In this document: piece by piece, positions 6,299-56,260 of the stretch
Position numbering within the stretch: the first letter of the stretch is position 1
How the letters are laid out: every line of letters begins with the position of its first letter
NCBI GenBank assembly: GCA_965205335.1
Contig: OZ242164.1
Coordinates: forward strand, 96,001-160,000
Reading direction: 5' to 3'
From: Candidatus Woesearchaeota archaeon
GTDB taxonomy: Archaea; Nanobdellota; Nanobdellia; Woesearchaeales; UBA583
DNA: 64,000 nucleotides
Made by a program: the position numbers and the translations under genes
The notes under the pieces: generated by a model
The model's input: only the letters and a program-made list of their open reading frames with translations
Told to the model about the DNA's origin: nothing
Databases searched by the model: none

Positions 6299-6301
6299 TT
6301 T

Positions 6302-8583: not shown

Positions 8584-10068
8584 TTATTCGTATATTTTTC
8601 TGAGTTTCTCCTTAATATTATTACAAATTTCAAAATTATCTTTTGTTATTTCTTGATATATTTTAAAAGGCTTATTATTTGAGCCTTCATCTATCTCTAA
8701 TTCATCAGCTAGATTATTCTCTAATATAATGCTATAACCTAAGTTTTCATCTATTTTATTTTCTATTTCTGGAAAATCTTTCTCTCCGTCAGAATCATAT
8801 ACTGAAACATATTTGATTTTGAAGGCATTTAGGAATCCTATATAAGCAACTTGATTTTGCTTATTTTCACAATTTATTATTGAATAAGAGAACTTAAAGT
8901 AACTTGGCAGAAATTCATTAATTAATATTGGGATAGCAATTTTTTCAGATGGACCTTCAACTAAGATAACTTTATCAGCGAAGAAAACTTCATTTCTTTC
9001 AGGGTTTAACCAAAAAGTTAGATTTAGATTTCTGACTTTTTCTTGTCTTAATCTATCATCTCCTTCAAATTCAAATAAATCGTCTTTAATCTGCAGTATA
9101 TTAGTATTATTACTTTTTTTCTCTAACTTTATTATTGATTTGTAATCTCTTAGTTCCAGAAAGTAACCAGAGTGTGTTGTTAGAAAAATTGTATTTCCTC
9201 CTTCTGCCAGAGTTTTTAATATAGAGTAAAGTTCCCTTTGCATTTGTGGGTGTAGATAGATTTCAGGTTCTTCAAATAATAATATAAATTTCTTGTTATT
9301 ATTTTTTAATTTATTGAAAACTTTTAATAAAACAAATAAGAAATTCCTTTGAAAACCCATTCCTTTATTTTCTAAATCTGTCTCAGTTCCATCATCAAAT
9401 ATATAATTAGTATTTAATTTTATTATTTCTCTAAAATCTGGAAAATTAAACTCAAAATCAAATCTACAATCCCAATTAGATAACTCCTCTTCAATATTTT
9501 CTTTTAATTCCTTGATTTTATCAAAATAATATTCTCCATTTCCATCTTTGTTCATTTTATCTTTAATTAAAGTAAAATTGTCATTAATATTTCTGAATTC
9601 TTCTTCATCTTGCAAATTTGAAAATAGGTTATCAATTACTTTATTTAAAAAGTTACTCTTATTTTTTGGTGAAATTTCTTCATTAGAGTCTTTTAATAGG
9701 GCAGGTATGTAGTAAATCTCATCAGTTATTGGTTCTTTAAAGACTTTACTTCTTCCATCATAATTAGGATATTTGTTATATATTTCTCCTTCCTTTCTCT
9801 CAACTTTAACTTCTTCTTTTGAGAAACTTTTTTTAATTATTTCCTTCCCTTCTCCATCCTCAAATTCAATCTCAATAAATCCTTCTTCTCCTCCTTTTCT
9901 TATATAACTTTCATCAAATTTTATTTTGTTGAAGAAAAATAGAAGAGCAGTCAAAATATTTGTTTTCCCAAAACTATTTTTACCAACCAAAATATTTAAA
10001 TTATTTATTTTTAATTCTATATCCTTTATAGATTTCCAGTTATATATTTTTATTTTCACGGGTTTCAT
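8584..10068 (-). CDS. OLD-family ATP-dependent endonuclease (ABC ATPase + TOPRIM)
   Basis: GKNSFGKT, FEEPEIYLHP, TTHS, VILVEGPSE, VYDSD. Confidence 0.9.
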   Translation of the reverse strand: MKPVKIKIYNWKSIKDIELKINNLNILVGKNSFGKTNILTALLFFFNKIKFDESYIRKGGEEGFIEIEFEDGEGKEIIKKSFSKEEVKVERKEGEIYNKYPNYDGRSKVFKEPITDEIYYIPALLKDSNEEISPKNKSNFLNKVIDNLFSNLQDEEEFRNINDNFTLIKDKMNKDGNGEYYFDKIKELKENIEEELSNWDCRFDFEFNFPDFREIIKLNTNYIFDDGTETDLENKGMGFQRNFLFVLLKVFNKLKNNNKKFILLFEEPEIYLHPQMQRELYSILKTLAEGGNTIFLTTHSGYFLELRDYKSIIKLEKKSNNTNILQIKDDLFEFEGDDRLRQEKVRNLNLTFWLNPERNEVFFADKVILVEGPSEKIAIPILINEFLPSYFKFSYSIINCENKQNQVAYIGFLNAFKIKYVSVYDSDGEKDFPEIENKIDENLGYSIILENNLADELEIDEGSNNKPFKIYQEITKDNFEICNNIKEKLRKIYE

Positions 10069-12792: not shown

Positions 12793-13425
12793 TTATCTGT
12801 CTCTATTTTTTACTTCTAAAAGTTTTTCAATTATTTTGTGTATCATTGTGGATGGATTGCTTTTCTCAGAAAGCATTTCTATCTCTTTACTTTTCATTTC
12901 TTCTTCTATTTTCTTGGAGTTCTTTATTGCTTTCTTTATTTTTGGATATAGATGTCCTTTTATTATCTCTTTAATCTTAGATTTTGAATACTTTCCACTA
13001 GGAAGACATTCTCCTAATTCTTTTTTTACTTCCTTGTTTGTCATACTTCTATTTAACCTATCCTTAAAATGTAATAAAAACCACAACTCTAAAGAGGGAT
13101 TTGAAAGAATCAGTTTGATTTCTTTATACCCTGCAATTTCTTTCTTTGCTTCATCAATCTTTTTCTGCTTGTGATTATCTAAATCAAACACACAAAAATA
13201 TTTATCCCCTAGTATGAAGTTGTTCTCTCGCTCGTTCTTTTTCAAAAGTTCAACTGCTATTTTAGAAATGTTTTTAGGGTCTTTTTGCTTTGAAACGACA
13301 CATTCAATATTTAAATTATAAATTCTCAATATTTCTTTTAGAGTTTCAAAATACTTTTGTTCTGTTTTACCCTCACATATGATGTGAAATGTATTAATAG
13401 TAATATTTTTTGAAACTCTTGCCAT
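12793..13425 (-). CDS. rloB: RloB-family protein
   Basis: IICEGKTEQKYF, CVFDLD, SNPSLELWFLLHF, NPST. Confidence 0.9.
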   Translation of the reverse strand: MARVSKNITINTFHIICEGKTEQKYFETLKEILRIYNLNIECVVSKQKDPKNISKIAVELLKKNERENNFILGDKYFCVFDLDNHKQKKIDEAKKEIAGYKEIKLILSNPSLELWFLLHFKDRLNRSMTNKEVKKELGECLPSGKYSKSKIKEIIKGHLYPKIKKAIKNSKKIEEEMKSKEIEMLSEKSNPSTMIHKIIEKLLEVKNRDR

Positions 13426-13428
13426 TTT

Positions 13429-14664
13429 CTAATTAGATTCTTTGATGATTATTGGGATTGCTCCAAATCTTCCGCTATAGTAAGCCTTTTTTATATCTAA
13501 GTCTTTTCTTATACCTTTAAAGTCATATACAGAAACTAAACTTGTATTTTTATTTGGAGCTTTTTCCATAAACCAGATTTGGTCTCTCCTTAATAGATTG
13601 AGATCCAAAAGATCTGTATTATGTGTAGTAAATATCAATTGTGAACTCTTATTTTTTTTACTATTGAAGATATTAACAATATGTTCCATTATTAATGGAT
13701 GCAAACTTTTTTCTAATTCATCAATCAATAATACTTTATTATTTTCAAGAGCATCAATTATACTTCCAGCAATTGAAAATATTTTCTGAGTTCCAGATGA
13801 TTCTTCATTAAAGTCAAAAGATATTGACTCATTTTTACCCTCATTTTCCTGCTCATGTATAAATTCTATTTTGTATTTACGATCTAATAAGATTTGTTTA
13901 CGTAATTTTCTAGGAATATCTGGAGGCATATCATCTTCTGATATCTTTTTAATTTTAATATCAACAATTCCTAGATCACATGATTTTAATAAGTTCATAA
14001 TTTTGTTTTTAAGTTTTTTATTCTTATACATTAACTCAGTTGTCTCATCTTTATCAAACAAATTATCAAATAAATTAAATCCATTATTATCTGAAATTGA
14101 GATTATAATATTCTCCTTGAACCATAAATATATATCTCTTAATATTCCTTCTTCTTTTAAATTTACTGCTCTTGATATAAATAACATATTGTCTAATGTT
14201 TGTTGTGAATATGATTTGTATGATTTATATTTTCTGCCATACGAAAATTTCTCAGTTTCTTCCCTAAGATATATTTTTTTTCTGCCTTCATATAAAGATT
14301 CAGAATAAATTCTTTCATTATCTAATGAAACCATATATATATACCTATTATTATTAAGCAAGAACTCAATTTCAAAACTACTTTTCTTTTTTAGGTATTT
14401 CCTATTCAATCTATATGGAATTCTATTTGTTCTATATCTTGCTGAATTACTATGTGAAAATAAAATTAACTCTAAAAAAAACTTAAATGCTTTTAACAAA
14501 TTTGTTTTTCCTGATGCATTATGTCCATAAATTACACAGGATTTTAATAATCCGTTACCAAAAACATTATCTTTTAATGAATTATCATTACTTCCTGCCA
14601 CTAAGTCAAGAGTTACCTTATCTCTTATAGATAAAAAGTTTTCTACACTGAATTTTGTTATCAT
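13429..14664 (-). CDS. RloA/AAA_21 abortive-infection-type ATPase
   Basis: IYGHNASGKT, ESSGTQK, IDELEKSLHP, FTTH, LRRDQIWF, YYSGRFGAIP; directly upstream of rloB. Confidence 0.9.
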   Translation of the reverse strand: MITKFSVENFLSIRDKVTLDLVAGSNDNSLKDNVFGNGLLKSCVIYGHNASGKTNLLKAFKFFLELILFSHSNSARYRTNRIPYRLNRKYLKKKSSFEIEFLLNNNRYIYMVSLDNERIYSESLYEGRKKIYLREETEKFSYGRKYKSYKSYSQQTLDNMLFISRAVNLKEEGILRDIYLWFKENIIISISDNNGFNLFDNLFDKDETTELMYKNKKLKNKIMNLLKSCDLGIVDIKIKKISEDDMPPDIPRKLRKQILLDRKYKIEFIHEQENEGKNESISFDFNEESSGTQKIFSIAGSIIDALENNKVLLIDELEKSLHPLIMEHIVNIFNSKKNKSSQLIFTTHNTDLLDLNLLRRDQIWFMEKAPNKNTSLVSVYDFKGIRKDLDIKKAYYSGRFGAIPIIIKESN

Positions 14665-14993: not shown

Positions 14994-16265
14994 ATGCTAA
15001 TTAGTTTCAAAGTTAAGAATTTTTTATCAATAAAAGATGAAATTGAGTTGAGTTTAGACTCTACATCTAGCAAATCTAATCCTAAGAATTTGTTTAAGGC
15101 GGGAGGTTATACTCTATTAAAATCTTGTGTAATTTATGGTCCTAATGCTTCAGGCAAGTCAAATATTATCAAAGCAATTTTTTTTGTATGGAATTTAGTT
15201 AAAAATTCACTTAATTTTAATGAGGATGTTAGATTATCAGATCCTCCATTTAATTTGAGGCAATTTAAATTAGATAAAAAGATGTCCCAAATGCCAAGTG
15301 AGTTTGAAATTCATTTTATTAAAAATGATATTGAGTACATATATGGTTTTTCCTGTAATGAAACTAAGATAATTAAGGAGTTTCTGAAGTATAAACCAAA
15401 GAGGGAAAATTTTAAAGAAATTTTTGCGAGAAATGAACAATCCAAAGAGGAATTCAAATTTACTCATGATAAGAATAAACAAAAGAAAATTGAGGAATTT
15501 ACAAATAAAAACACATTGTATTTGTCAAAATCAACTCAGTTTAATTATGAAAAGATAAAACCTGCTTATGATTTTCTTGCTAATGAATTAGTTATTAACC
15601 ATAATCCTGCTTCAAGTATTGATACAATGAAAAAAATCTATGGGGATGTCAAATTTAAAGATAAAGTGGTTGATATATTAGAGAGAACAGATTTTGGAGG
15701 AATTGTTGACTTAAATGTGAGGAAAAAGAAAATGAAAGTTAGGGAGATTAAATTTGAAGGTGAGAGCACAAAACTTAATGAGTTTGCTGATGAAAAAGAT
15801 TTTTATAATCTAAAAATATCTCACCTAACTAAGGATGGTAAGGTAGAATATTTTGAGATAAATGAAGAATCAATAGGGACCCAGAAAGTATTTAACATGT
15901 TAGGACCAATCTTTAATACTTTTGAAACTGGAAAAGTTTTAATTATTGATGAATTAGACTCAAGTTTACATCCGAATATTACTCGTTTTTTAGTTAAGTT
16001 ATTTAGTAGCAAGTATAATAAGAAGAATGGGCAAATTATTTTTACGACACATGACACAACTTTATTGAAAGATGAGGAATTACTTAGGAGAGATCAGGTT
16101 TACCTTTGTTCTAAAAGACCTAATGAACAAACAGAGTTATATAGTTTAGTTGATTTTAAGTTAAGAGAAGATATGAACTTTGAGAAAGCCTATTTTGGAG
16201 GAAGAGTTGGAGGACTTCCATTCATTGATGAAACTTTTTTTGATGAAAATGACGAGGAGAAATAG
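14994..16265 (+). CDS. RloA/AAA_21 ATPase (copy 1)
   Basis: GPNASGKS, ESIGTQK, IDELDSSLHP, RRDQVY, GRVGGLP. Confidence 0.9.
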   Translation: MLISFKVKNFLSIKDEIELSLDSTSSKSNPKNLFKAGGYTLLKSCVIYGPNASGKSNIIKAIFFVWNLVKNSLNFNEDVRLSDPPFNLRQFKLDKKMSQMPSEFEIHFIKNDIEYIYGFSCNETKIIKEFLKYKPKRENFKEIFARNEQSKEEFKFTHDKNKQKKIEEFTNKNTLYLSKSTQFNYEKIKPAYDFLANELVINHNPASSIDTMKKIYGDVKFKDKVVDILERTDFGGIVDLNVRKKKMKVREIKFEGESTKLNEFADEKDFYNLKISHLTKDGKVEYFEINEESIGTQKVFNMLGPIFNTFETGKVLIIDELDSSLHPNITRFLVKLFSSKYNKKNGQIIFTTHDTTLLKDEELLRRDQVYLCSKRPNEQTELYSLVDFKLREDMNFEKAYFGGRVGGLPFIDETFFDENDEEK

Positions 16266-16641: not shown

Positions 16642-16857
16642 ATGGAGAAGCCAAAGGAAGAGATAGAAGATGACAAAGTTCAGGAGGCTTGTGGGAAACT
16701 AACTGGTGAAGAAAGAGAAATTAAGGAATTTGTGATGAAGATAAAAAATGAAGATCCTGAATTTAATTCAATAGTAGATTGTGTGATTGAGAGTGTTTCC
16801 AAGAATGGATTTTCAGAGAATACTTTTGAACAGAAATTTAGAAATAAAAATGAATAA
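16642..16857 (+). CDS. Small hypothetical protein overlapping the start of the RloC-like gene
   Basis: 71-aa ORF whose end overlaps the ATG at 16850. Confidence 0.55.
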   Translation: MEKPKEEIEDDKVQEACGKLTGEEREIKEFVMKIKNEDPEFNSIVDCVIESVSKNGFSENTFEQKFRNKNE

Positions 16858-19213
16858 GATAAAAAAGATTGTCATAACTGGTTTTAGAGGAATAAAGAAT
16901 ACTTTTGAAGTTGATTTCTCTTCAAAAGGAAATTCAATTATTATATATGGAAGAAATGGAACTGGGAAAAGTTCAATAACTGACGCTTGGGAATGGGCAC
17001 TTAGTAAAGAAATAGAGCACTTGAAAAGAGAAAATGCTGGTCCTTCTTCATATCCTCATAAAGAAGCTAATGAAACTTCTGTTACTATTGAAGCAAATAT
17101 TGACAAACAAGAATTAGCTTTTAATGTTCTATGGGATGAGAGGAATGTCATAATTTCAGATGAATCTCACTATAATAATTTCAAAGAATTAAATAAATAT
17201 CCTTGTTATCTTAGACAATCAGATTTACAAAGATTTGTCCTTATGACAAAAACAAATAAATATGAATACCTTATGAAATATTTAGGTTTAAATGTACATC
17301 TTAAAACTCAAAATGATTTAAGAACATATTATGGAAAATTAACTCAAAAAGAGGAAGAAAGTAAAGACATATTGAATAGATTAATTAACGATATTTGTAA
17401 TACTCTAAATATCACTCAATTTAAAGAAGAAATAATATTGCAAGAATTAAATAGTAATTTATCAAGATACAAAATTCCAATAGATAAATTATCTGAATCA
17501 GAATTGAATACTGTCTTAGAGAGGTTTAAAGATTTAGTTGATAAAAACCCTATATCAAAAGAATTAGATGAGTTAAAGAGGATTCAAAAAGAATATTCTA
17601 ATTTTTTAGATATTCCGGAATTTGTCAAAGAAATAGAAGATCTAAAAAAATTATTTGATGAACTAAACAAAAACCAAGAAAACTTTAAGAAACTAATACT
17701 TGGAGATATTTACTCTAACTCACTTGAATACTTAAACCGAGATGATATTAAGGATAAAAACATCTGCCCTGTATGTGAACAAGAGCGAAGTAATTTAATT
17801 AATTTTTTAGAGAAAAAGAGTAATCTGTTGCAAGAACTAAAAGAACAAAAATCATGTTTTGATGATTTACAAGAAAGATTAAAATCAAAATTTGATAAAT
17901 ATATTATTACTATTTCCAATATTAAGGAGATAAATAATGACTTTGTTACAGAAAAAAATTCTTCTTTTAATATCTCATTAAAATTATTAAATTCCTTAAA
18001 GAATAATTGTGAAATAGATATACTGGATATTAGAAATTTTAAGGAGTTAACTAATTCTGATAGAAAATTAATCTTTTCAGTATTAAATGATGAAGTATTT
18101 ACAGACAAATTGAACAATAAAGTAGATAAGCTTGAGAAACCTACTAGCGAAGATAAACTGAGTGAAGTATTTCAAAAGATATCTACCTTTAACGATTTAA
18201 TTTCAGAATATTGGAATAAAGATGAGGAATATGAATTACTAAAGTTTGAGAAGGAAAGTTTTAGAATAATCTTTTCAGAATTTACCTCATATGTTAAATC
18301 GAGACTAAATAAAAAGTTTGATATTATTAAGGAAGATATTTCTAATTTTTTTAATGTTTTAGAGAATAATACTAGTAGACATCTTTCAAGTCCTAAAATT
18401 GAATTATTAGACACTAACAAAGCAATTGAAATTGAAATTGGAATTGAAGATTCCAGAGTCTCACCTGCCTTTAAAATCATGAGTGAATCACAAGTAAATA
18501 GTTTAGGATTATCTGTATTTCTCGCATGTATCAAAACTTTCAACAACAATTTAAAATTTATAATTCTTGATGATATTGTAAGTAGTTTAGATGGACATAA
18601 GAAGGATAATTTACTAAAATTATTAAATGATTATTTTAGAGATTATCAAATATTAATGCTTACTCATGATAACCTTTGGTTTAATAAAGTAAGAAATAAG
18701 TTTAGGAACTGGAAAATACAAAAATTTACTGGTTGGAAATATAATCATGGACCTATTACTATTAATAGTGGTGGAACAATCGAGGATATTAGGGAAGACA
18801 TAAGTGAAGATGACTCTCACAGTGCTGGTCATAAACTTGGAGTTTATTTGGAGTGTGAATTGCAAGATATTAATGAAAAAATTAAATCAAATGTCAAATA
18901 CAAATCCTACAATGAATATACTCTCTCTGAACTTCTTAATAGTTTTCGGGCAAGAATTAAAGATGTTTTGGGAAGTTCACACGATGTATGTATGATAGAT
19001 TTAGATACCTCATTTAGAAATTTTGTAGACCATCATAAAAACCTTGAAGGAAATGTCACTACAGAAGATATTAGAAATGCACTTGAAGAATGGCAAAAAG
19101 TTGAAAGTATTTTGAAATGTAATGAATGTAATGAATATGTTCTTTATGATGATGTCTCAAAGAAGTTAAGATGTGAATGTCTGATAAAAATACTTGAAAA
19201 ACAAAAAAATTAG
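16850..19213 (+). CDS. SMC/Rad50-like ABC ATPase with zinc hook and C-terminal HEPN-like motif (RloC-like)
   Basis: GRNGTGKS, central CPVC within coiled coil, MSESQ signature, ILDDIVSSLD, LTHD, RNFVDH (Rx4H), terminal CxxC. Confidence 0.75.
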   Translation: MNKIKKIVITGFRGIKNTFEVDFSSKGNSIIIYGRNGTGKSSITDAWEWALSKEIEHLKRENAGPSSYPHKEANETSVTIEANIDKQELAFNVLWDERNVIISDESHYNNFKELNKYPCYLRQSDLQRFVLMTKTNKYEYLMKYLGLNVHLKTQNDLRTYYGKLTQKEEESKDILNRLINDICNTLNITQFKEEIILQELNSNLSRYKIPIDKLSESELNTVLERFKDLVDKNPISKELDELKRIQKEYSNFLDIPEFVKEIEDLKKLFDELNKNQENFKKLILGDIYSNSLEYLNRDDIKDKNICPVCEQERSNLINFLEKKSNLLQELKEQKSCFDDLQERLKSKFDKYIITISNIKEINNDFVTEKNSSFNISLKLLNSLKNNCEIDILDIRNFKELTNSDRKLIFSVLNDEVFTDKLNNKVDKLEKPTSEDKLSEVFQKISTFNDLISEYWNKDEEYELLKFEKESFRIIFSEFTSYVKSRLNKKFDIIKEDISNFFNVLENNTSRHLSSPKIELLDTNKAIEIEIGIEDSRVSPAFKIMSESQVNSLGLSVFLACIKTFNNNLKFIILDDIVSSLDGHKKDNLLKLLNDYFRDYQILMLTHDNLWFNKVRNKFRNWKIQKFTGWKYNHGPITINSGGTIEDIREDISEDDSHSAGHKLGVYLECELQDINEKIKSNVKYKSYNEYTLSELLNSFRARIKDVLGSSHDVCMIDLDTSFRNFVDHHKNLEGNVTTEDIRNALEEWQKVESILKCNECNEYVLYDDVSKKLRCECLIKILEKQKN

Positions 19214-31934: not shown

Positions 31935-33815
31935 ATGAAACTTACCAATATTAAAATTAAGAATTTTAAGTCTTTAAAAGAGATGGACGTTGATTTAAAT
32001 TCTAATAAAAATTTAGTTATTGGTAAAAATAATTCAGGAAAGTCAAATTTTTTGGAGTGTATAGGGATGATGTTAAAACCAGGTCGGAGTGGAATGAATT
32101 TGCCAGCATTTAATTCCGAATTAAATCATGAATCAAAGTATTTGAATCCAAAGGAACCAATAGAGATAGAGGTTAGGTTTGATATAACAGATAGTCTAGC
32201 AAACTTACCTGAAGAAGTAAAAGTTTATTCATTTCAGGAGGTAGGAAGAACTTTCTTAGTACTTTCATTAGAAAAAAAAATAAATGAAGATGGTTTCTTT
32301 TATATTGGTAATACTAATGTTACTTTTCCAGAATATGTAAAAACTTCAAGGTATATTTATTTTAATTGTATTATTGTTGATACAGATAGAAAGTTTGATA
32401 AAAATATAAATTCTGATACTTGTTCTTCTATATTTGGAACAATTCTTTCGAATATGATTGGAGCCTTTATTGAAGCAAATAAAGGAAAACTACTTGATAT
32501 TTCTAAGGAGAGTGATGAAAATTTCTCAAATAATTTTTGTAAAATGCTAACTTTATGGTTTGAAAAACAAATTATTGTTGATTCTACTTTTGATGAGGTA
32601 AGAAGAGTTTTATTTAAGCATAAACATTGTATTAAGTGCGAGACATTAGATTTTATTAACAATGGATTTATAACTTTTGATTATTTGGAAAAGATCCTTA
32701 AGAAATTATCAATCTTAATGGATGATGGTAATTTGCAAGAAATAAATCTAAAGGGAATGGGAATTCAAAGTACATTTTTGATTAGTCTAATATTAAAGTG
32801 TAATATGTTTTTTAGAGTTCCTCCAATCATCTGTATTGATGAAGTTGAACTTCATTTACATCCTCAAGCTCAGAGAAGATTCAATTCAATATTAAATGAT
32901 CTTTCTTCAAAAAATCAGTTAATACTCACAACTCACTCTCCAATTTTTATAACTGAGACAGATATCTTTAAGTTAATACTATTTAAGAAAGAAGAGTATA
33001 CTTCTTTATCTCAGGTCGGAAATAGAGAGAATTTAAATGAGGACATAGTAAAAAGGGAATTAAATGAGTTTAATTCTGAAATGTTTTTTGCAAGCGCAGT
33101 TATGTTGGTCGAAGGTTTAACAGATAAATTATTTTTTAGATATATTGCTAATAATTGTCTAAGTCAAGAATATAATTTTGATAAAAATAATATTTCAGTT
33201 ATTCCTATTGGGAGTAAAGATAATGGTAGAATATATTTACAGATTCTAAATGAATTTAATATTCCATACTTTGTTCTTTTAGATAAAGGTGGAGAGAATC
33301 AAATTAAGAAGTTAGAAAGAATTAATAGATACAGTAATAATTTGGTTTCTCTAAAAAAAGGAGAGATTGAAGATTATTATTCAGAGGAATTGATTATAAA
33401 GATAAAGTTGAAAGAAGTTCCAAATGTTAAAGATCTTCTAGCAGACAAATTAAATAATAAACCGAATAAAAAGACAATTGAGAAAGCTTGGAAAAAGATG
33501 ATCTTAGATCATTTGGAAGATTTTCCTAAAAACAGATTTAAGGAATTGAGTAAAGAAGATCAAAACAGATTGAATAAAGATATATCAAAATGGTTCTCCA
33601 AGGCTTTGAATGAACTAGTGGCAGATAAAGATTTTGAAGTAGAACCTAGAAGAAAGTATCAAATATTAGCCTCAATATTTGGCTCAATAGGAAAACCGAG
33701 GTTAGCACTTACTTTATTAAATTATATGGAAGATGAGAAGTATCTCGATAGTGAGATCATAGATATTATAGTTAGAGTGGTTGATTTAAGTAAACATCAA
33801 AGATCAAAGGGTTAG
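31935..33815 (+). CDS. OLD-family ATP-dependent endonuclease
   Basis: GKNNSGKS, KGMGIQS, IDEVELHLHP, TTHSP, VMLVEGLTD, LLDKG. Confidence 0.9.
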   Translation: MKLTNIKIKNFKSLKEMDVDLNSNKNLVIGKNNSGKSNFLECIGMMLKPGRSGMNLPAFNSELNHESKYLNPKEPIEIEVRFDITDSLANLPEEVKVYSFQEVGRTFLVLSLEKKINEDGFFYIGNTNVTFPEYVKTSRYIYFNCIIVDTDRKFDKNINSDTCSSIFGTILSNMIGAFIEANKGKLLDISKESDENFSNNFCKMLTLWFEKQIIVDSTFDEVRRVLFKHKHCIKCETLDFINNGFITFDYLEKILKKLSILMDDGNLQEINLKGMGIQSTFLISLILKCNMFFRVPPIICIDEVELHLHPQAQRRFNSILNDLSSKNQLILTTHSPIFITETDIFKLILFKKEEYTSLSQVGNRENLNEDIVKRELNEFNSEMFFASAVMLVEGLTDKLFFRYIANNCLSQEYNFDKNNISVIPIGSKDNGRIYLQILNEFNIPYFVLLDKGGENQIKKLERINRYSNNLVSLKKGEIEDYYSEELIIKIKLKEVPNVKDLLADKLNNKPNKKTIEKAWKKMILDHLEDFPKNRFKELSKEDQNRLNKDISKWFSKALNELVADKDFEVEPRRKYQILASIFGSIGKPRLALTLLNYMEDEKYLDSEIIDIIVRVVDLSKHQRSKG

Positions 33816-41476: not shown

Positions 41477-42061
41477 TTAACTTAGTTTTGAATTTTCAAA
41501 GTCTTCTTTTTTAATTAAAACTTGTTTTAAAACACACTGTGACAATTCGTTTGAACGGGAAAAATCAGAATTTCTTTTTTTATCATAATATGTATATAGT
41601 ATAGTTTTTACGTTTTCACTGTCAATGTCTTTGATTACTGGTACAAAATCACTATCACAAGCAATTAATATTATTTTTTTTATATCAGAGAATTTGTAGG
41701 GTGTTTTTGATAAATCCATAGTTAAATGAGTATCTACACCTTTTTGAGTATATACAAATTTTCTATTCTTTTTCACTCTTTGGACTCTTCCCTCTCTAAT
41801 TGTAATGTTATTTCCAAGAGATAATTTGTGTACAAATTTATCATAGTTCTCTTTCTTTATGCTTTGTTCTCTAGTTGGTTTGCTTGAGATAAATGGAGGG
41901 GCTGTATAGTAAAATATATGTTCAACTTTTAATCTTTCTTTTTTTGCAAAGATTTCTGCTAATCTGAATATGTCATATTTTAAATATTTACCATTTCCAT
42001 AGTGTAAAGCTAATTTTGATAGAAATCCTGCATCAATAAAAATTAGAGTTTTTTCTGACAT
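41477..42061 (-). CDS. NYN-domain ribonuclease (family A)
   Basis: IFIDAGF, FYYTAPP, QKGVDT, IACDSDFVP. Confidence 0.9.
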   Translation of the reverse strand: MSEKTLIFIDAGFLSKLALHYGNGKYLKYDIFRLAEIFAKKERLKVEHIFYYTAPPFISSKPTREQSIKKENYDKFVHKLSLGNNITIREGRVQRVKKNRKFVYTQKGVDTHLTMDLSKTPYKFSDIKKIILIACDSDFVPVIKDIDSENVKTILYTYYDKKRNSDFSRSNELSQCVLKQVLIKKEDFENSKLS

Positions 42062-42098
42062 AGAAATTCAACGTTAGAATTATTTATAAAGTTTTTCA

Positions 42099-42151
42099 GA
42101 AGAGGTGTAGAACTCATCTAGAAACCCCACCTCAAGATCTCTAGGGTGCAT
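42099..42151 (-). ncRNA. Putative pseudoknot small RNA, family A copy 1
   Basis: Lies between its own TATA (42175-42184) and the NYN TATA (42083-42090); conserved with 50037-50090. Confidence 0.6.
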
Positions 42152-42250
42152 GTTAATTATTGTAATAATTCTATATTTATATAGTTTTCTATGTTTTCTT
42201 ACTTTTCTAAACTTTCTATACTGACTTAGGGTGTTAGGTGGATATTTTGC

Positions 42251-42836
42251 TCAGTTTCTTGTTCCCTCAAATTCCATTGAAAAGATTCTAGTGTAGATTG
42301 TAACTTTTACTCCTTTTTTTCCTTTAGTGAATAAATTTAAGGTTCTATCGTCTATGTAGTTGTCTATTAGTTTTATTGATTTTTTGGCATTTCTTATTAG
42401 GTCTGAGATAAATTTGTGTGCATCAAATAGTTGTCCTTCAAAGAATATTCCTTTTTGGGGTTTTATGTCAGGGTTTTTAAGTAGTGAGAATATTTTGTTG
42501 AAGTTGGTGTCATAGTCCAATAATTTGTTCTCAATAACATTTAATCTATATAGCATATCTTGATTTTCAGAAATAAATTTTTTCATTTCTATGAATGCAT
42601 TTATTATCTGAATGCTTATTTTGATTGCGGTTTTGCTGTGGAGTACTGCTGAGAGCATTGAAACTCCTTGTTCTGTAAAGACGTAAGGTAATTTTCTTCT
42701 CCCTCCATGTTCATAACTTGAAGTCACAATTTGTGACGTCAAGATTTCATATTCATGTTTAGTCATTTGGAACATAAATTCCTTTGGAAATCTCTCAATA
42801 TTTCTTTTTACTGCCTGATTTAGCACTTTTGTTTCA
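42251..42836 (-). pseudogene. ORF6N-domain gene, 5'-truncated copy of 50182..50868
   Basis: LNQAVKRNIERFP, LPYVFTEQGVSMLS. Confidence 0.8.
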
Positions 42837-42974
42837 TATAATGCAGTGTCCCTTTAGAGAATTCTTTCTTCTTCTGAAGGCACTTCAATTTCTTTTTTGC
42901 CATTTTCTTCATTTTTAGATTTATTAGAAACAAATTTTATTGAATATAAATATTTTTTTAAGGAAGTAATATTT

Positions 42975-49425: not shown

Positions 49426-49998
49426 TCAATTTTCAAAGTCTTCTTTTTTAATTAAAACATATTTTTCCACATTCTGTAATAATTCATTTGACCTTGAAAA
49501 ATTAGTATTTCTGTCTCTATTAAAATAAGTGTAAAGAATTGTTTTAACTCCCTTTTTGTAAGCATTGTTTATCGCAGGAATAAAATCAGTATCACATGCA
49601 ATTAGAATTACATTTTTTATATTTGGATATTTAGCAGAAGTCTCAATTAAATCAATAGTTAGCAAAGTATCAACTCCTTTTTGAGAAAACTTGTACCTAT
49701 TACCCTCTTTTACTCTTTGACACCTTCCTTCTCTTATAGTAATTATTGAATTTTTCTTAAGTTTTAGAAGAAATTTATCATAATTTTCTTTTCTTCTGTT
49801 TTCATCTTCTGTTGGTCTATTTGAAACAAATGGTGGGGCAGTATAATAAAAAATCCTTTCAATCTTAAAATTTTCTTTTTTAGCAAAAATATTTAGTAAA
49901 CTAGTTATATCAAATTTCAGATATTTTCCATTTCCCAAGTATTGAGAGAGTTTTGAAAGAAATCCAGCATCAACTAGTATAAGTGTTCTCCTATTCAT
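49426..49998 (-). CDS. NYN-domain ribonuclease (family A)
   Basis: ILVDAGF, FYYTAPP, QKGVDT, IACDTDFIP. Confidence 0.9.
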   Translation of the reverse strand: MNRRTLILVDAGFLSKLSQYLGNGKYLKFDITSLLNIFAKKENFKIERIFYYTAPPFVSNRPTEDENRRKENYDKFLLKLKKNSIITIREGRCQRVKEGNRYKFSQKGVDTLLTIDLIETSAKYPNIKNVILIACDTDFIPAINNAYKKGVKTILYTYFNRDRNTNFSRSNELLQNVEKYVLIKKEDFEN

Positions 49999-50036
49999 TA
50001 AGAATTCTTAGAAGAAATACTTTATAAATTTTATCT

Positions 50037-50090
50037 AAGGGGGTGTAGAACATCATCTAGAAACCCCACCCCGAGATCTCTAGGGTGCAT
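50037..50090 (-). ncRNA. Putative pseudoknot small RNA, family A copy 2
   Basis: ATGCACCCTAGAGATCTCGGGGTGGGGTTTCTAGATGATGTTCTACACCCCCTT; TATA at 50115-50123. Confidence 0.6.
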
Positions 50091-50181
50091 GTTAGTTTAT
50101 TCTAAGACTTCTTTATTTATATAGTTTTCTATGTTTTCTAAACTTTCTATACTGACTTAGGGTGTTAGGTGGATATTTTGC

Positions 50182-50868
50182 TCAGTTTCTTGTTCCCTCA
50201 AATTCCATTGAAAAGATTCTAGTGTAGATTGTAACTTTTACTCCTTTTTTTCCTTTAGTGAATAAATTTAAGGTTCTATCGTCTATGTAGTTGTCTATTA
50301 GTTTTATTGATTTTTTGGCATTTCTTATTAGGTCTGAGATAAATTTGTGTGCATCAAATAGTTGTCCTTCAAAGAATATTCCTTTTTGGGGTTTTATGTC
50401 TGGGTTTTTAAGTAGTGAGAATATTTTGTTGAAGTTGGTGTCATAGTCCAATAATTTGTTCTCAATAACATTTAATCTATATAGCATATCTTGATTTTCA
50501 GAAATAAATTTTTTCATTTCTATGAATGCATTTATTATCTGAATGCTTATTTTGATTGCGGTTTTGCTGTGGAGTACTGCTGAGAGCATTGAAACTCCTT
50601 GTTCTGTAAAGACGTAAGGTAATTTTCTCCTTCCTCCATGTTTATGACTTGAAGTCACAATTTGTGACATCAAGTTTTCATATTCTTGTTTGATCATTTG
50701 AAACATAAATTCTTTTGGGAATCTTTCAATATTTCTTTTTACTGCTTGATTTAGCACTTTTGTTTCAACTTGGTAGAATTTAGCCAAATCAGAATCAAGC
50801 ATGACTTGAACTCCTCTAATGATATGAATTTTGTTTTTTATGTTTTTGATTAATTCAGCTCTTTCCAT
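50182..50868 (-). CDS. ORF6N-domain protein (C-terminal domain truncated)
   Basis: IRGVQVMLDSDLAKFYQVET, FPKEFMFQ, LIDNYID. Confidence 0.85.
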   Translation of the reverse strand: MERAELIKNIKNKIHIIRGVQVMLDSDLAKFYQVETKVLNQAVKRNIERFPKEFMFQMIKQEYENLMSQIVTSSHKHGGRRKLPYVFTEQGVSMLSAVLHSKTAIKISIQIINAFIEMKKFISENQDMLYRLNVIENKLLDYDTNFNKIFSLLKNPDIKPQKGIFFEGQLFDAHKFISDLIRNAKKSIKLIDNYIDDRTLNLFTKGKKGVKVTIYTRIFSMEFEGTRN

Positions 50869-51066
50869 TTAAATCACCTTCAATTTTCACTAATATCTCT
50901 TTAATAGTGAATTTAAAATAAAATTATAGTTTTAATAAATTATCTCCCCTTAATTCCTCTATTTGAATTTATAGACAAATCTGTTTCTTAAAAATCATTG
51001 GGTCTCAAAAAACAACCAGAACCTTTTTTAACAATATTTATAAATTATAAGAAATCTATTATATTT

Positions 51067-51138
51067 GTCCGGGCATCAGGTTCGGGACGGTGGCCTGTCA
51101 AGTTGCTGTCGTTGGGTTCAATTCCCACTGTCCGGACA
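51067..51138 (+). ncRNA. tRNA-like small RNA (GUC loop, non-canonical fold)
   Basis: GC-rich island; GTCCGGGCA/TGTCCGGAC stem, GGTTCAATTCC T-arm, CTGTCAA loop; TATA at 51037-51044, T-tracts downstream. Confidence 0.75.
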
Positions 51139-51222
51139 TCTTTTTTTTATCTTTTTTTAATTGAGAAGAAACTCAATTAATTACCTTATGTATATCACTA
51201 TTTATAAACCTAACGCTTTCAT

Positions 51223-51350
51223 GGCTCTGTCCATAAATTCAAGAGAACTTAAAATATTGTATCAATAAAGCAACTTTTGATAAATAATTTCTTTCTTTGA
51301 TTGAATATATTTAGCATAGATTTTGGAAAAAACAATTTATGGACAGAGCC
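51223..51350 (+). mobile_element. 128-bp IS5-type MITE (copy C)
   Basis: Perfect 17-bp TIR GGCTCTGTCCATAAATT, identical to the IS end at 51655. Confidence 0.95.
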
Positions 51351-51472
51351 ACCAATACAATAAATTTATAAATTAGTAGTTAGTTCTTAGTTTAGATATA
51401 GTTGATAAATTTTTATAAATTATTTCTTAGTTAAATTGATTTATAGTTTTTACAGATATATCCTAGTTAAAA

Positions 51473-51604
51473 ATGGAAGATAATAGAGAGAAATATAAAG
51501 TAAAGTGTTCTGAGTGTGATGCTGAAACGGAAGTTCCTTTTAAACCAACGGAAGGGAGACCTGTTTATTGTAAAGAATGTTACAAGAGTAGAAAGAGGTT
51601 TTAA
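51473..51604 (+). CDS. CxxC-x17-CxxC zinc-ribbon protein (43 aa; not in ORF track)
   Basis: MEDNREKYKVKCSECDAETEVPFKPTEGRPVYCKECYKSRKRF. Confidence 0.9.
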   Translation: MEDNREKYKVKCSECDAETEVPFKPTEGRPVYCKECYKSRKRF

Positions 51605-51654
51605 CCTTAGTAATCAATACTTTCAGGTATTGTAAGTGAATGATATATGTAATA

Positions 51655-52678
51655 GGCTCTGTCCATAAATTAATTTTTTTAAAATAAAAGAGATGAAAAT
51701 ACTATTTGATACTAAAACATTATCATTTTTCTTTTGAAAATTATCCAATTTTCATAGAAGAAAATTACATAAGAAAGTTTTTTTCTAATGTTATACCACA
51801 GAATATTCTATGCCATCTCCCTTTTTTTCATAAAATGTATCCTACTTCTGATATTTAGGCCTTGAACTCTCTTGAGGGATGAAAACACACTCTCGACATT
51901 GTTCCTTTTATTGTATATTTCTTTGTTTTTGAAGTATTTTTGTTTGATTTTCCAATGCTTAAAAGCATTATGCTTGGTTTTTGCATAGTCTTTTGGCGGG
52001 AAAATCAAATCTATATCTTTATCATTTAGAAAATCTAAATGATCAAAGGAAAAATATCCTTTGTCTGCCACAATAACACTCTTCTTTATTTTGAGTCTTT
52101 TGAAAAGTTTGTTTGCAACTTTTGAATCATGCTGATTCTTAACCAAGAAAGAATAAGTCAATTATTTGTTTAGAGCCTTGTACGTCACAAATTATATCTA
52201 ATTTGTGCCAAGGTGATTTGGGTTCAAATCCAATCCGATGTTTGTAATAAGTAGTTTTATGGTCTGCATCAATTCCCGAACCATCAATTGCTACAATGTC
52301 TGGATTAGGATTTTCTAAAGAAAGTCTAATTAGGTTGCGGATAAAACTAACTGAGAAGAACTTTAACCACTTATGAAGTGTTGATTTCTTTGGAAGGCGT
52401 TTTAACTGCAACCAATGTTTCCAAATAGTTAAACTGCCGTCTATGTTGCTTACAAACCTTCTAAAGGATTTTCCTGATTGGATGTATAAGACTATTATAG
52501 AAACTCTTTGATAATTGTTAAAGAGTTTGCAACCTCTCACAAAATTGTGAGGCCTTAACCTTAAACTATGACAAAGTTTAAGTACTTCCATATGTAAACT
52601 ATTAGTAAAGTTGGTGTGTTCTAACATAAAAAACTATCAACTTTACACTTTATTAATTCTTCGATTTGAATCAGTGCC
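51655..52678 (-). mobile_element. IS5-family insertion sequence with inactivated DDE transposase
   Basis: AIDGSG, VADKGY, YNKRNNVESVFSSLK; 1-nt insertion at ~52157 and in-frame TAG at 51808; ends GGCTCTGTCC and (internally deleted) TTGAAT-CAGTGCC. Confidence 0.9.
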
Positions 52679-52766
52679 GCTTTCATGGCATTACACATCT
52701 TCTTATGAGTTTGACAACTTTCAGAGAAAGTTGAGGTGGTGACATATGCAACACATCTTATTCTCT

Positions 52767-54822: not shown

Positions 54823-54982
54823 ACACATAAATCTGATTCTTCTCTCCCAAAATTCTTTTTAAGTTCTTTACCGTTTGCGAGTACAAAAATAAAGTAGTTT
54901 CTATTGTTTTTCTTTGAATATTGCAGAAAATCTTCAAAAATTAGCGAAAATTATTTAAATACAGATGAATTATTTTATAATT

Positions 54983-56260
54983 ATGCTAATTAGTTTCAAG
55001 GTTAAAAATTTTTTATCAATAAAAGATGAAGTTGAGTTGAGTTTAGACTCTACATCTAGCAAATCTAATCCTAAGAATTTGTTTAAGGCGGGAGGTTATA
55101 CTTTATTAAATTCCTGTGTAATTTATGGTCCTAATGCTTCAGGTAAGTCAAATATTATCAAAGCAATTTTTTTTGTATGGAATTTAGTTAAAAATTCACT
55201 TAATTTTAACGAGGATGTTAGATTATCAGATCCTCCATTTAATTTGAGGCAATTTAAATTAGATAAAAAGATGTCCCAAATGCCAAGTGAGTTTGAAATT
55301 TATTTTATTAAAAATGATATTGAGTACATATATGGTTTTTCCTGTAATGAAACTAAGATAATTAAGGAGTTTCTGAAGTATAAACCAAAAGGAGAAAATT
55401 TTAAAGAAATTTTTGCAAGAGATGAACAATTCAACGAAGAATTCAAATTTACTCATGATAAAAATAAACAAAGGAAAATTGAGGAATTTACAAATAAAAA
55501 CACATTGTATTTGTCAAAATCAACTCAATTTAATTATGAAAAGATAAAACCTGCTTATGATTTTATTGCTAATGATTTAGTTATTAACTATAGCCCTTCT
55601 TGGAGTGATTATACAATGAAAAAAATCCATGAGGATGTCAAATTTAAAGATAAAGTGGTTGATATACTAGAGAGAGCAGATTTTGGAGGAATTGTTGACT
55701 TGAATGTGAAGAAAAAGAAAGGGAAAGTTAGTGGTTTTGAAGTTAAATTTGAAGGCAAGAGCCCGAGCCTTAAGGAGATTGATGAAGAAGGAGATTTTTA
55801 TGATTTAAAAATATCTCACCCAACTAAGGATGGTAAGGTAGAATATTTTGAGATAAATGAAGAATCAATAGGGACCCAGAAAGTATTTAACATGTTAGGA
55901 CCAATCTTTAATATTTTTGAAACTGGAAAAGTTTTAATTATTGATGAATTAGAATCAAGTTTACATCCCAATATTACTCGTTTTTTAGTAAAGTTATTTA
56001 GTAGCAAGTATAACAAGAAGAATGGGCAAATTATATTTACGACACACGACACAACTTTATTGAAAGAAGAGGAATTATTTAGAAGAGACCAGGTTTACAT
56101 TTGTTCTAAAAGACCTAATGAACAAACAGAGTTATATAGTTTAGTTGATTTTAAGTTAAGAGAAGATATGAACTTTGAGAAAGCCTATTTTGGGGGGAGA
56201 GTTGGAGGACTTCCATTTATTGATGAAACTTTTTTTGATGAAAATGACGAGGAGAAATAG
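54983..56260 (+). CDS. RloA/AAA_21 ATPase (copy 2)
   Basis: Near-identical to 14994..16265 except for a central block. Confidence 0.9.
   Translation: MLISFKVKNFLSIKDEVELSLDSTSSKSNPKNLFKAGGYTLLNSCVIYGPNASGKSNIIKAIFFVWNLVKNSLNFNEDVRLSDPPFNLRQFKLDKKMSQMPSEFEIYFIKNDIEYIYGFSCNETKIIKEFLKYKPKGENFKEIFARDEQFNEEFKFTHDKNKQRKIEEFTNKNTLYLSKSTQFNYEKIKPAYDFIANDLVINYSPSWSDYTMKKIHEDVKFKDKVVDILERADFGGIVDLNVKKKKGKVSGFEVKFEGKSPSLKEIDEEGDFYDLKISHPTKDGKVEYFEINEESIGTQKVFNMLGPIFNIFETGKVLIIDELESSLHPNITRFLVKLFSSKYNKKNGQIIFTTHDTTLLKEEELFRRDQVYICSKRPNEQTELYSLVDFKLREDMNFEKAYFGGRVGGLPFIDETFFDENDEEK

Follow-up and report, generated by a model that had tools for sequence, protein, structure and literature searches.

We suggest that a 64,000-nt stretch of a Candidatus Woesearchaeota genome (contig OZ242164.1; the whole of this analysed stretch is called the window below) carries a real, separately transcribed gene for a tRNA-shaped RNA of 70–72 nt that has no D-stem, its transcription being predicted from the promoter and terminator signals around it. 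Judging from sequence comparison, this gene (hereafter the element, Table 1) is so far the only representative found in archaea of a D-stem-less RNA class that lacks annotation and has look-alikes in bacteria and on one viral contig. As for its role, we tentatively read it as a non-decoding mimic of tRNA-Asp that would serve as bait or competitor for tRNA-directed enzymes, the likeliest of the readings weighed below, a decoy action to which we assign somewhat less than an even chance.

The minimum free energy (MFE) structure of the element coincides with the centroid in RNAfold and consists of three helices in which all 22 base pairs are intact. Besides the linker that takes the place of the D-arm, the two bases before the T-stem, one C after it and the terminal A are unpaired. 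This is identical to the fold proposed in the first-pass annotation of this DNA (9-bp helix, 10-nt linker, 9-bp stem, 4-bp T-stem), and the coordinates given there for a TATA box, T-tracts and a G+C-rich element of 72 nt agree with the sequence. At -29.5 kcal/mol the fold is more stable than that of shuffled sequences (-22.5±2.65 kcal/mol, z = -2.63), with 2 of 200 shuffles equally stable, while the minus strand behaves like its shuffles (z = -0.03, 88 of 200 as good). The folding signal is thus confined to one strand, in keeping with what the G:U pairs imply. The element has 60% G+C in a host genome of 25% G+C and against a 2-kb background of 0.22–0.30 in the window; two 60-nt stretches in the 64 kb reach at least 50% G+C, and the element is the stronger of them (0.60).

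Several canonical tRNA features are present: the T-arm and T-loop consensus GGGUUCAAUUCCC, and a 7-nt anticodon-like loop, CUGUCAA, with U33, a GUC triplet and a purine (A) at position 37. The corresponding loop of the host tRNA-Asp is CUGUCGA. The final GG of the linker would be the equivalent of G18G19. Nonetheless, the first-pass view that this is not a normal tRNA holds. ARAGORN reports no tRNA in the whole window in its standard modes, and none at the locus with the options -t, -ps, -ps90 and -i; no Rfam model matches the element at its gathering threshold. In a permissive search the Rfam tRNA model (RF00005) gives 20.8 bits against a gathering threshold of 29, with the D-arm region collapsed, and the next-best model on the locus reaches at most 14.3 bits. 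It is in the metazoan-mitochondrial mode of ARAGORN that the sequence is accepted, as a 'D-loop mtRNA-Asp(gtc)' at 51069–51137 with a D-replacement loop. A relation to YrlA-type Y RNA, raised in the first pass, found no support, as a search of 50950–51250 with the YrlA model (RF02553) gave no match even at E<=10. The transfer-messenger RNA (tmRNA) model (RF00023) leaves the element unmatched at E<=1 in a genome search, and neither a gene for SmpB nor an above-cut-off tmRNA was found in the host genome.

The host genome is a single contig of 1,199,749 bp whose small subunit rRNA is archaeal (1320 bits, the archaeal model being the best in its clan). It has 34 tRNA genes that cover all 20 amino acids, some of them intron-bearing (135- and 149-nt matches). 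One of the 34, at genome position 1,106,279, is for a normal tRNA-Asp(gtc), and the element is therefore not needed for decoding. The best local alignments of the element with the 34 host tRNAs cover the generic T-arm alone and it shares no 16-mer with them, which rules out a decayed host tRNA-Asp, the alternative that the first-pass annotation had allowed for, as well as the half-tRNA of an integrating element. A tRNA fragment left by such an element was likewise rejected, since both acceptor strands are present and no likeness to a host tRNA goes beyond the T-arm; there is no integrase among the window open reading frames (ORFs) scanned. An RNA of a type III toxin-antitoxin system (ToxI-like) was also considered and rejected: such RNAs consist of tandem repeats that precede the toxin gene directly and share its transcript, but the only tandem repeats in 50850–51700 are a T-tract and one A+T-rich 16-mer array, and the element is divergent from the neighbouring gene.

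The putative promoter and terminator resemble those of the host tRNA genes. The exact octamer found upstream of the element, TTTATAAA, occurs at -24 to -46 in 11 of the 34 (20 of 34 with one mismatch), and a T run of at least 4 follows within 25 nt downstream in 21 of 34; the T8 tract of the element begins 3 nt past its end. An archaeal TATA box is centred ~26–27 nt upstream of the transcription start, and the position of this one accordingly predicts a start at or next to G51067, with a leader of 0–2 nt. No CCA is encoded, as had been pointed out in the first pass; this is uninformative, because the host tRNA genes inspected encode none either. Contigs of one of four sequencing runs (X1, probably the source sample) contain the element with 0 differences. 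A search for RNA runs covering the locus listed none, and two runs guessed to be of RNA gave no contig there, which speaks neither for nor against expression. A joint in X1 that links 50944 to 51223 was considered as an element-less strain and rejected, as a paralogous locus at 896 kb of the genome explains it.

Relatives of the element were sought in archaea at increasing distance. BLASTN of 51030–51160 against 60 relatives gave matches in the A+T-rich flanks alone. A covariance model of the element (R1, self-score 107.4 bits) gave at most 24 bits in 19 genomes of the same genus, the matches being ordinary tRNA sequences. In the order, where 150 genomes were covered, no score exceeded 26.7 bits, and the three best matches were tRNA-Thr, tRNA-Asp and tRNA-Thr. 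A broader model (R2, 72.5 bits for the element) reached at most 40.4 bits in 150 phylum-wide genomes; all 8 loci checked were ordinary tRNAs, and the host's own tRNA-Ala scores 37.4 bits, the level of the best phylum matches. The element is single-copy in its genome. By its distribution among these sequences it is an accessory and not a core gene, and it probably arrived in the defence island described below by horizontal transfer.

Bacteria gave a different picture. Scanning for the motifs GGTTCGG or CAGGTTCGG in combination with a 7-nt loop frame and a T-loop yielded at least 119 metagenome loci, 45 genome loci and 5 + 65 viral loci. The 45 come from a scan of one genome per species (185,579 species, from which the genome of the window may have been excluded), and none has an archaeal title. 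With a stricter first pattern, in which the loop was fixed as CTGTCAA, nothing was found in viral or genome contigs. Most matches of the motif scan are ordinary tRNAs, but R1 selects about 20 with the whole build among the matches listed; the viral scans contributed one clear look-alike (L270, the same as L290), plus units of actinobacterial-type tRNA arrays. What they have in common is an acceptor of 8 bp, then the linker CAGGUUCGG, a ~9-bp stem that ends in a 7-nt loop, 1–2 nt and a 4-bp T-arm. The terminal helix measures 8–9 bp in the class, and the element has the class build in terminal helix, linker, stem and T-arm.

When 15 of these sequences are aligned to the model, pairing holds in 90.2% of cells, and both sides have changed in 18 of 22 pairs. 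The covariation score for these is 0.627, against at most 0.113 in slid controls, and was reached by none of 500 shuffles. The linker motif is invariant in all 15 aligned look-alikes (columns C11–G19), but GGUUCGG was itself among the motifs scanned for. One Gemmataceae genome holds a second copy that has diverged, with compensatory changes in the T and long stems. When a model was built from 21 bacterial and viral members with the window left out (R3) and run on the archaeal genome, the element came first at 59.9 bits (E 4e-11); among host tRNAs the best scored 38.0 bits and tRNA-Asp 17.9. Of the homologues with covariation that the first-pass annotation had proposed to look for, none was found among the related archaea sampled, while look-alikes with covarying stems are present in bacteria.

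The third acceptor pair is G:U in 13 of the 15 aligned sequences and G:C in the other two, the window among these, and U(-1) lies opposite an A at the discriminator position in 12 of 15. G3:U70 together with A73 is the alanine identity set. The frequency of both in the class suggests that its members are charged.

Alignment with the look-alikes also bears on where the mature RNA of the element would begin. MAFFT places C51069 of the window opposite bacterial G1 and A51136 opposite A73, and the Rfam tRNA alignment likewise draws a 7-bp acceptor; the 9-bp helix may therefore correspond to a 7-bp acceptor extended by two leader/trailer pairs. On the bacterial alignment, the mature 5' end may lie at C51069 with A51136 as discriminator. 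This framing puts a U:C mismatch at the fifth T-stem or eighth acceptor pair, and an A follows the helix in either frame. The geometry is 9+4 as folded, or 7 + U:C mismatch + 4 as aligned to the look-alikes; the acceptor branch of allo-tRNAs has 12 bp, arranged as 8/4 or 9/3. The 9/4, tRNA-Sec-like geometry claimed in the first pass stands in so far as 9+4 folds in RNAfold, but its acceptor part may be 7 bp with two precursor pairs. None of the other traits of tRNA-Sec (UCA anticodon, long variable arm, 6–7-bp D-stem) is found in the fold of the element, and the long D-stem with tetraloop and the long variable arm of allo-tRNAs are both absent from it.

Around the look-alikes, a neighbourhood scan covered 41 of 70 ORFs of at least 70 aa at 14 distinct loci, the duplicate L111, ORFs overlapping the RNA and hand-chosen nested or small ORFs being excluded. 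A transposase (IS1595, Mutator or IS1 family) lies within 2 kb at 7 of the 14 loci, a Panacea-domain antitoxin near 1 of the 14. In Planctomycetota the RNA is followed after 270–400 nt by an IS1-family transposase on the same strand, at five strongly diverged loci in four genomes, and the UAU-loop RNA may there be an RNA companion of the insertion sequence (IS). No inverted repeats enclosing RNA and transposase were seen at the three bacterial loci checked, and copy number is 1–2 in five bacterial genomes (150 candidates scored per genome in four). Several bacterial look-alikes have broken stems and transposase neighbours. At L097 a tRNA(GGU) begins 25 nt past the GUC-loop member (L097:1990-2157, identical in L111). 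Upstream of both acidobacterial GUC loci, L097 and L227, there is a protein of no known family (135/150 aa, 135 aa at L097; 45% identity) that has no counterpart in the archaeal genome, while other ORFs upstream of bacterial look-alikes are unrelated to one another.

Four further metagenome or viral loci (L078, L138, L272 and L274) are tRNA arrays with odd tRNAs, e.g. one called as a 73-nt 'tRNA-SeC(tca)'. They hold a unit with the CAGGUUCGG motif and weak YrlA matches (34–39 bits, cut-off 69), such as 38.6 bits at L138 and 34.5 bits at L078, and resemble tRNA arrays of actinobacteria or phages in which one member is Y-RNA-like.

Table 1. The element and its parts, neighbouring features of the window, and bacterial and viral look-alikes
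Feature	Position in the window, or locus	Strand	Basis or remark
Whole tRNA-like RNA gene, 72 nt	51067..51138	+	Sequence, fold, G+C
Archaeal TATA box TTTATAAA, first base at -30 from the element	51037..51044	+	Exact octamer
Terminal (acceptor) helix, 5' strand, GUCCGGGCA	51067..51075	+	RNAfold; alignments
Unpaired 10-nt linker UCAGGUUCGG replacing the D-arm	51076..51085	+	RNAfold
9-bp stem (4 G:U pairs) closing the 7-nt loop CUGUCAA	51086..51110	+	RNAfold, ARAGORN
T-arm: 4-bp stem UGGG/CCCA, loop UUCAAUU	51113..51127	+	Rfam alignment, RNAfold
Terminal helix, 3' strand UGUCCGGAC, then unpaired A	51129..51138	+	RNAfold
T8 (51141-51148) and T7 (51152-51158) tracts, putative archaeal-type oligo-T terminator	51141..51158	+	
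ORF6N-domain protein, divergent from the element	50182..50868	-	PADLOC candidate PDC-S05
NYN-domain gene after the ORF6N gene	49426-49998		
Miniature inverted-repeat transposable element (MITE)-like repeat	51223..51350 (some copies to ~51372)		More than 40 genome copies, 80-99% identity
IS of ~1,025 nt, split DDE_Tnp_1 transposase (51808-52161, 52139-52627)	51647..52671	-	
50-nt repeat	52699-52748		At least 10 further genome places, 98-100% identity
Type III restriction-modification system	3746-8233		Defence island
Old/Gabija-like nucleases, two	8584-10068, 31935-33815		Defence island
AbiLi with full AbiLii (RloB-like)	13429-14664 (AbiLi), 12793-13425 (AbiLii)		Defence island
AbiLi, second	14994-16265		Defence island
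AbiLi, third, with AbiLii fragment	54965-56260		Defence island
Lamassu-like SMC	16787-19213		Defence island
DpdF-like helicase; PDC-S11 (twice); PDC-S05 (ORF6N and RhuM)			Defence island
IrrE-like/DUF4411 pair; four NYN-domain genes; PIN_12; MNT-HEPN pair; ParE			Defence island
Look-alikes, loop CUGUCAA	L097/L111, L227		Acidobacteria
Look-alikes, UAU-type	L137, L161, L183, L156, L170, L177, L195, L220, L225, L226, L231, L236		Gemmataceae and other Planctomycetota
Look-alike, GCG	L184 = L209		Phenylobacterium
Look-alike, GCA	L215		Acidobacteriaceae
Look-alikes	L217, L224		Candidate phyla radiation
Look-alike	L238		Gammaproteobacterial metagenome-assembled genome
Look-alike	L270		Viral contig
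RNA-IS1 loci	L195, L220 (=L276), L225, L236, L278		UAU-loop members

The whole 64-kb window is a defence island, and the first-pass description of the setting as one of RNase toxins is borne out by its NYN, PIN, HEPN-MNT, AbiL, Old and type III restriction-modification genes. The RloC mentioned there was not seen among the ORFs scanned, which hold AbiLi/AbiLii (RloB-like) pairs instead. The ORF6N and NYN genes next to the element are not its obligatory partners, because they also occur without it: ORF6N homologues are present in 7 of the 19 same-genus genomes, all lacking the element, and a second ORF6N-NYN pair in the window (41477–42898, compared with 49426–50868) has no element RNA. The two pairs are 91% identical in their intergenic region and 90% identical in their ORF6N proteins. 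The copy at 42 kb has an in-frame TAA in ORF6N, and ORF6N is present a third time, broken, at genome position 1,099,462. The other stretch of at least 50% G+C in the window (50032–50098), in the spacer that separates ORF6N from NYN, is kept in the paralogous pair. Although a GGGGUG/CACCCC hairpin is present in it, the stretch folds about as well as its shuffles (z = -0.74).

On its other side the element is bordered by mobile DNA and lies outside both the neighbouring MITE and the IS. The MITE-like repeat measures ~130–150 nt and has terminal inverted repeats (GGCTCTGTCCATAAATT ... AATTTATGGACAGAGCC). It does not belong to the RNA, and its presence downstream indicates an insertion-prone spot. 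The IS has at least five further copies in the genome at 89–98% identity, and the 50-nt repeat may be an IS end or another small repeat; none of the further copies of MITE, IS and 50-nt repeat carries an element. A 432-nt segment (51223–51654), made up of the MITE and ~300 nt more, is 99.8% identical to C1:520859–521290, whose end lies ~180 nt upstream of the gene for the host tRNA-His. The near-identity reflects a recent event between the two loci, either a duplication or a recombination.

How could an RNA built in this way act as a mimic of tRNA-Asp? The 3' strand of the lost D-stem would pair with the variable region, which would bring the anticodon stem to 9 bp. Such a stem has about the length of the usual stack of D-stem and anticodon stem and could stand in for it, while the GG of the linker would dock on the T-loop. 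With a dockable GG and an extended stem, the RNA could still form an L-shape presenting an Asp-type loop, and its likeliest action would be that of a decoy, competing as substrate for a nuclease that is directed at tRNA and belongs to the island or comes from an invader.

A number of observations weigh against this reading, against the reality of the class or against the place of the element in it. The 7-nt anticodon loop is canonical and the dimensions are those of a tRNA, as one would expect of a decoder no less than of a decoy, and transcription is predicted from sequence signals. No conserved protein partner was found beside the element or the bacterial look-alikes. The element is a singleton among the archaea sampled, and the four G:U pairs in one stem would equally fit early decay. 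The link between element and bacterial sequences is partly circular, because the loci were found with element-derived motifs, and the alignments behind both the covariation score and R3 were fitted by element-derived models. When RNAalifold is given a structure-blind MAFFT alignment, it finds the acceptor and T helices again, with compensatory changes in 9 of its 15 predicted pairs, and misses the long stem, since that alignment is out of register there. Single-sequence MFE folding gives a clear junction in 3 of 15 sequences (window, L184 and L224) and partly in L170; the single bacterial folds mostly pair the linker with the T-arm strand. Finally, lacking G3:U70, the element may not work as the bacterial copies do.

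Some of these observations would also be expected of a relic, a non-canonical tRNA-like gene that came on a mobile element, has lost its function and is decaying, which we consider rather unlikely though worth weighing. The element has no counterpart in the sampled genomes of its genus, order and phylum, sits amid MITE and IS debris and duplicated modules, and has its four G:U pairs in the long stem, while look-alikes with broken stems lie beside transposases in bacteria. The accessible text of Mukai et al. 2017 (PMC5389517) describes pseudogene-like copies of allo-tRNA(UAU), and that of PMC9897764 describes non-canonical tRNA remnants left in archaeal genomes by integrating elements. Decay is, however, difficult to reconcile with 22 of 22 intact base pairs and with 60% G+C kept in a genome of 25%. 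The exact host-consensus TATA box and the strong T-tract would arise by chance in roughly 1–2% of cases at this base composition (a rough estimate), and a gene with both acceptor strands that copies no host tRNA is not a fragment.

Use of the RNA by the ribosome, as a charged, supplementary tRNA-Asp, e.g. a spare that a tRNA-Asp-directed nuclease could not cut, is in our estimation unlikely. D-armless tRNAs do decode in mitochondria, and the mitochondrial mode of ARAGORN accepts the element; its 7-nt loop has U33, GUC and A37 in canonical places, the T-loop is intact, GG is present in the linker, and the 9-bp stem would restore the normal distance from anticodon to elbow. Charging is further suggested by G3:U70 (13/15) and discriminator A (12/15) in the class. 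Against this, the host already possesses tRNA-Asp(GUC), and the identity of the element does not look like that of an aspartate tRNA. G73 and C38 are Asp identity elements; the element has a discriminator-like A, A37 and A38, compared to G73 and G37 in the host tRNA-Asp, and the base at its discriminator position can pair within the 9-bp helix. Prokaryotic translation is not known to use D-armless tRNAs. The accessible text of PMC11551756 (2024) states that all known bacterial tRNAs are cloverleaves.

We give little credence to a mobile-element RNA that serves the life of its own element (transposition, targeting or addiction) and does not engage host or viral tRNA enzymes. It would account for transposases within 2 kb of 7 of 14 bacterial loci, for the RNA-IS1 order at five planctomycetal loci of four genomes and for the IS copy 580 nt from the element in the window. 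It is harder to square with the many IS and MITE copies that lack the element, with the element having no second copy, with the different family (DDE_Tnp_1) and opposite strand of the archaeal IS, with the missing enclosing inverted repeats at three bacterial loci and with the copy number of 1–2 in five bacterial genomes. A chance cluster of G+C-rich hairpins, or a coding part of the mechanically called ORF 50998–51180, is very improbable: a 60-aa ORF with a TTG start does overlap the element and 2 of 200 shuffles fold equally well, so that significance is not overwhelming, but neither accounts for the T-arm consensus, the 7-nt loop with U33, the strand-specific G:U pairs, promoter and terminator, or for 59.9 bits from a model built without the element.

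A bolder proposal than decoy action, and a doubtful one in our view, is that the element is the first archaeal member of a cross-domain class, not described before, of miniature D-stem-less RNAs resembling the tRNA-like domain (TLD) of tmRNA, which would travel with mobile elements and defence islands and act as effectors in translation conflicts. If so, the bacterial members would be charged with alanine (G3:U70, A73) and carry varied loops (UAU, GUC, GCG, GCA), the identity would have changed in the archaeon, and the planctomycetal member would be a fixed companion of an IS1-family transposase. The RNA could then be a toxin that miscodes or jams ribosomes, an antidote, or bait for nucleases.

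tRNAs outside mitochondria are taken to be cloverleaves, and standard annotation with ARAGORN and Rfam overlooked the element along with the majority of the bacterial look-alikes. Should the class prove real, a compact tRNA/tmRNA-like fold has been kept in an archaeal defence island, in bacterial transposon neighbourhoods and on a viral contig. The alternatives of decoy, toxic decoder and ribosome-rescue-like RNA are approachable with small, simple RNAs, and the element would be a natural D-armless scaffold for tRNA engineering. It would also provide a handle on a question posed in the accessible text of PMC5389517, that of irregular tRNAs beside toxin-antitoxin and transposon genes.

The allo-tRNAs and irregular tRNA polycistrons described there, from Acidobacteria and other bacteria, are among the nearest published parallels. 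According to the same portions of that paper, the geometry of allo-tRNAs is 8/4 or 9/3, and both their D-stem and their variable arm are long; irregular bacterial tRNAs have UAU, GCG and GUC as predominant anticodons, include some G3:U70 variants, are tied to toxin-antitoxin genes and transposons, and are in some cases inactive in translation. The class shares with them, as so described, non-canonical acceptor/T geometry (8/4 in the bacterial look-alikes), G3:U70 variants, neighbourhoods with toxin-antitoxin genes and transposons, doubtful use in translation, and the anticodons UAU (L137 and others), GCG (L184) and GUC (L097, L227 and the window), and the pairing of L097 with a tRNA(GGU) recalls their irregular tRNA polycistrons. 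They differ, on that description, in being ~88 nt long with a long D-stem, tetraloop and long variable arm, whereas the class has neither D-stem nor variable arm. Neither the linker motif nor the 3'-end strings of the class occur in the supplementary sequence tables of PMC5389517, whose accessible text reports no archaeal case and whose supplement contains the word 'archaea' 0 times. In the full-text literature covered, no D-stem-less class of tRNA-like RNAs was seen to be described for prokaryotes, although the figures of that paper could show related folds; the accessible part of a review (PMC7609411) holds nothing closer.

The TLD of tmRNA (RF00023) has, like the element class, an acceptor helix, an unpaired D-loop analogue, a long helix and a T-arm, and no D-stem; with the bacterial look-alikes it further shares G1G2G3:U70, A73, a D-loop of GGUUCG type and a 3' end in ...CCUCCAC. 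The look-alikes give sub-threshold tmRNA matches over model positions 1–374 (21–30 bits for L097, cut-off 47). In the L097 match, a 306-nt interior is replaced by 7 nt, while the P2-like stem and the T-arm match; this end-to-end match indicates that the build of the class is that of the tRNA-like domain. The element is unlike tmRNA in its length of 72 nt, in its 7-nt anticodon-like loop, and in having no tag reading frame, no pseudoknots and no G3:U70.

D-armless mitochondrial tRNAs of animals, e.g. tRNA-Ser(AGY), resemble the element in their D-replacement loop and extended anticodon stem. They are, however, organellar, A+T-rich and eroded, whereas the element is G+C-rich, has a canonical T-loop and GG in its linker, and belongs to a free-living archaeon that also has a complete set of canonical tRNAs. 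The acceptor/T domain of the element can also be drawn with nine plus four base pairs, as in the 9/4 tRNA-Sec of archaea and eukaryotes, but its GUC loop, the 2 nt between anticodon and T stems and the lack of a D-stem set it apart. Phage tRNAs replace host tRNAs cut by defence nucleases. To these, and to tRNA-like decoys, the likeness would be one of functional analogy, an extra tRNA-shaped RNA in a conflict locus; phage replacement tRNAs are canonical cloverleaves borne by the phage, whereas the element is non-canonical and host-borne. YrlA and other Y RNA-like RNAs, finally, are tRNA mimics that act outside translation, as we propose the element may do.

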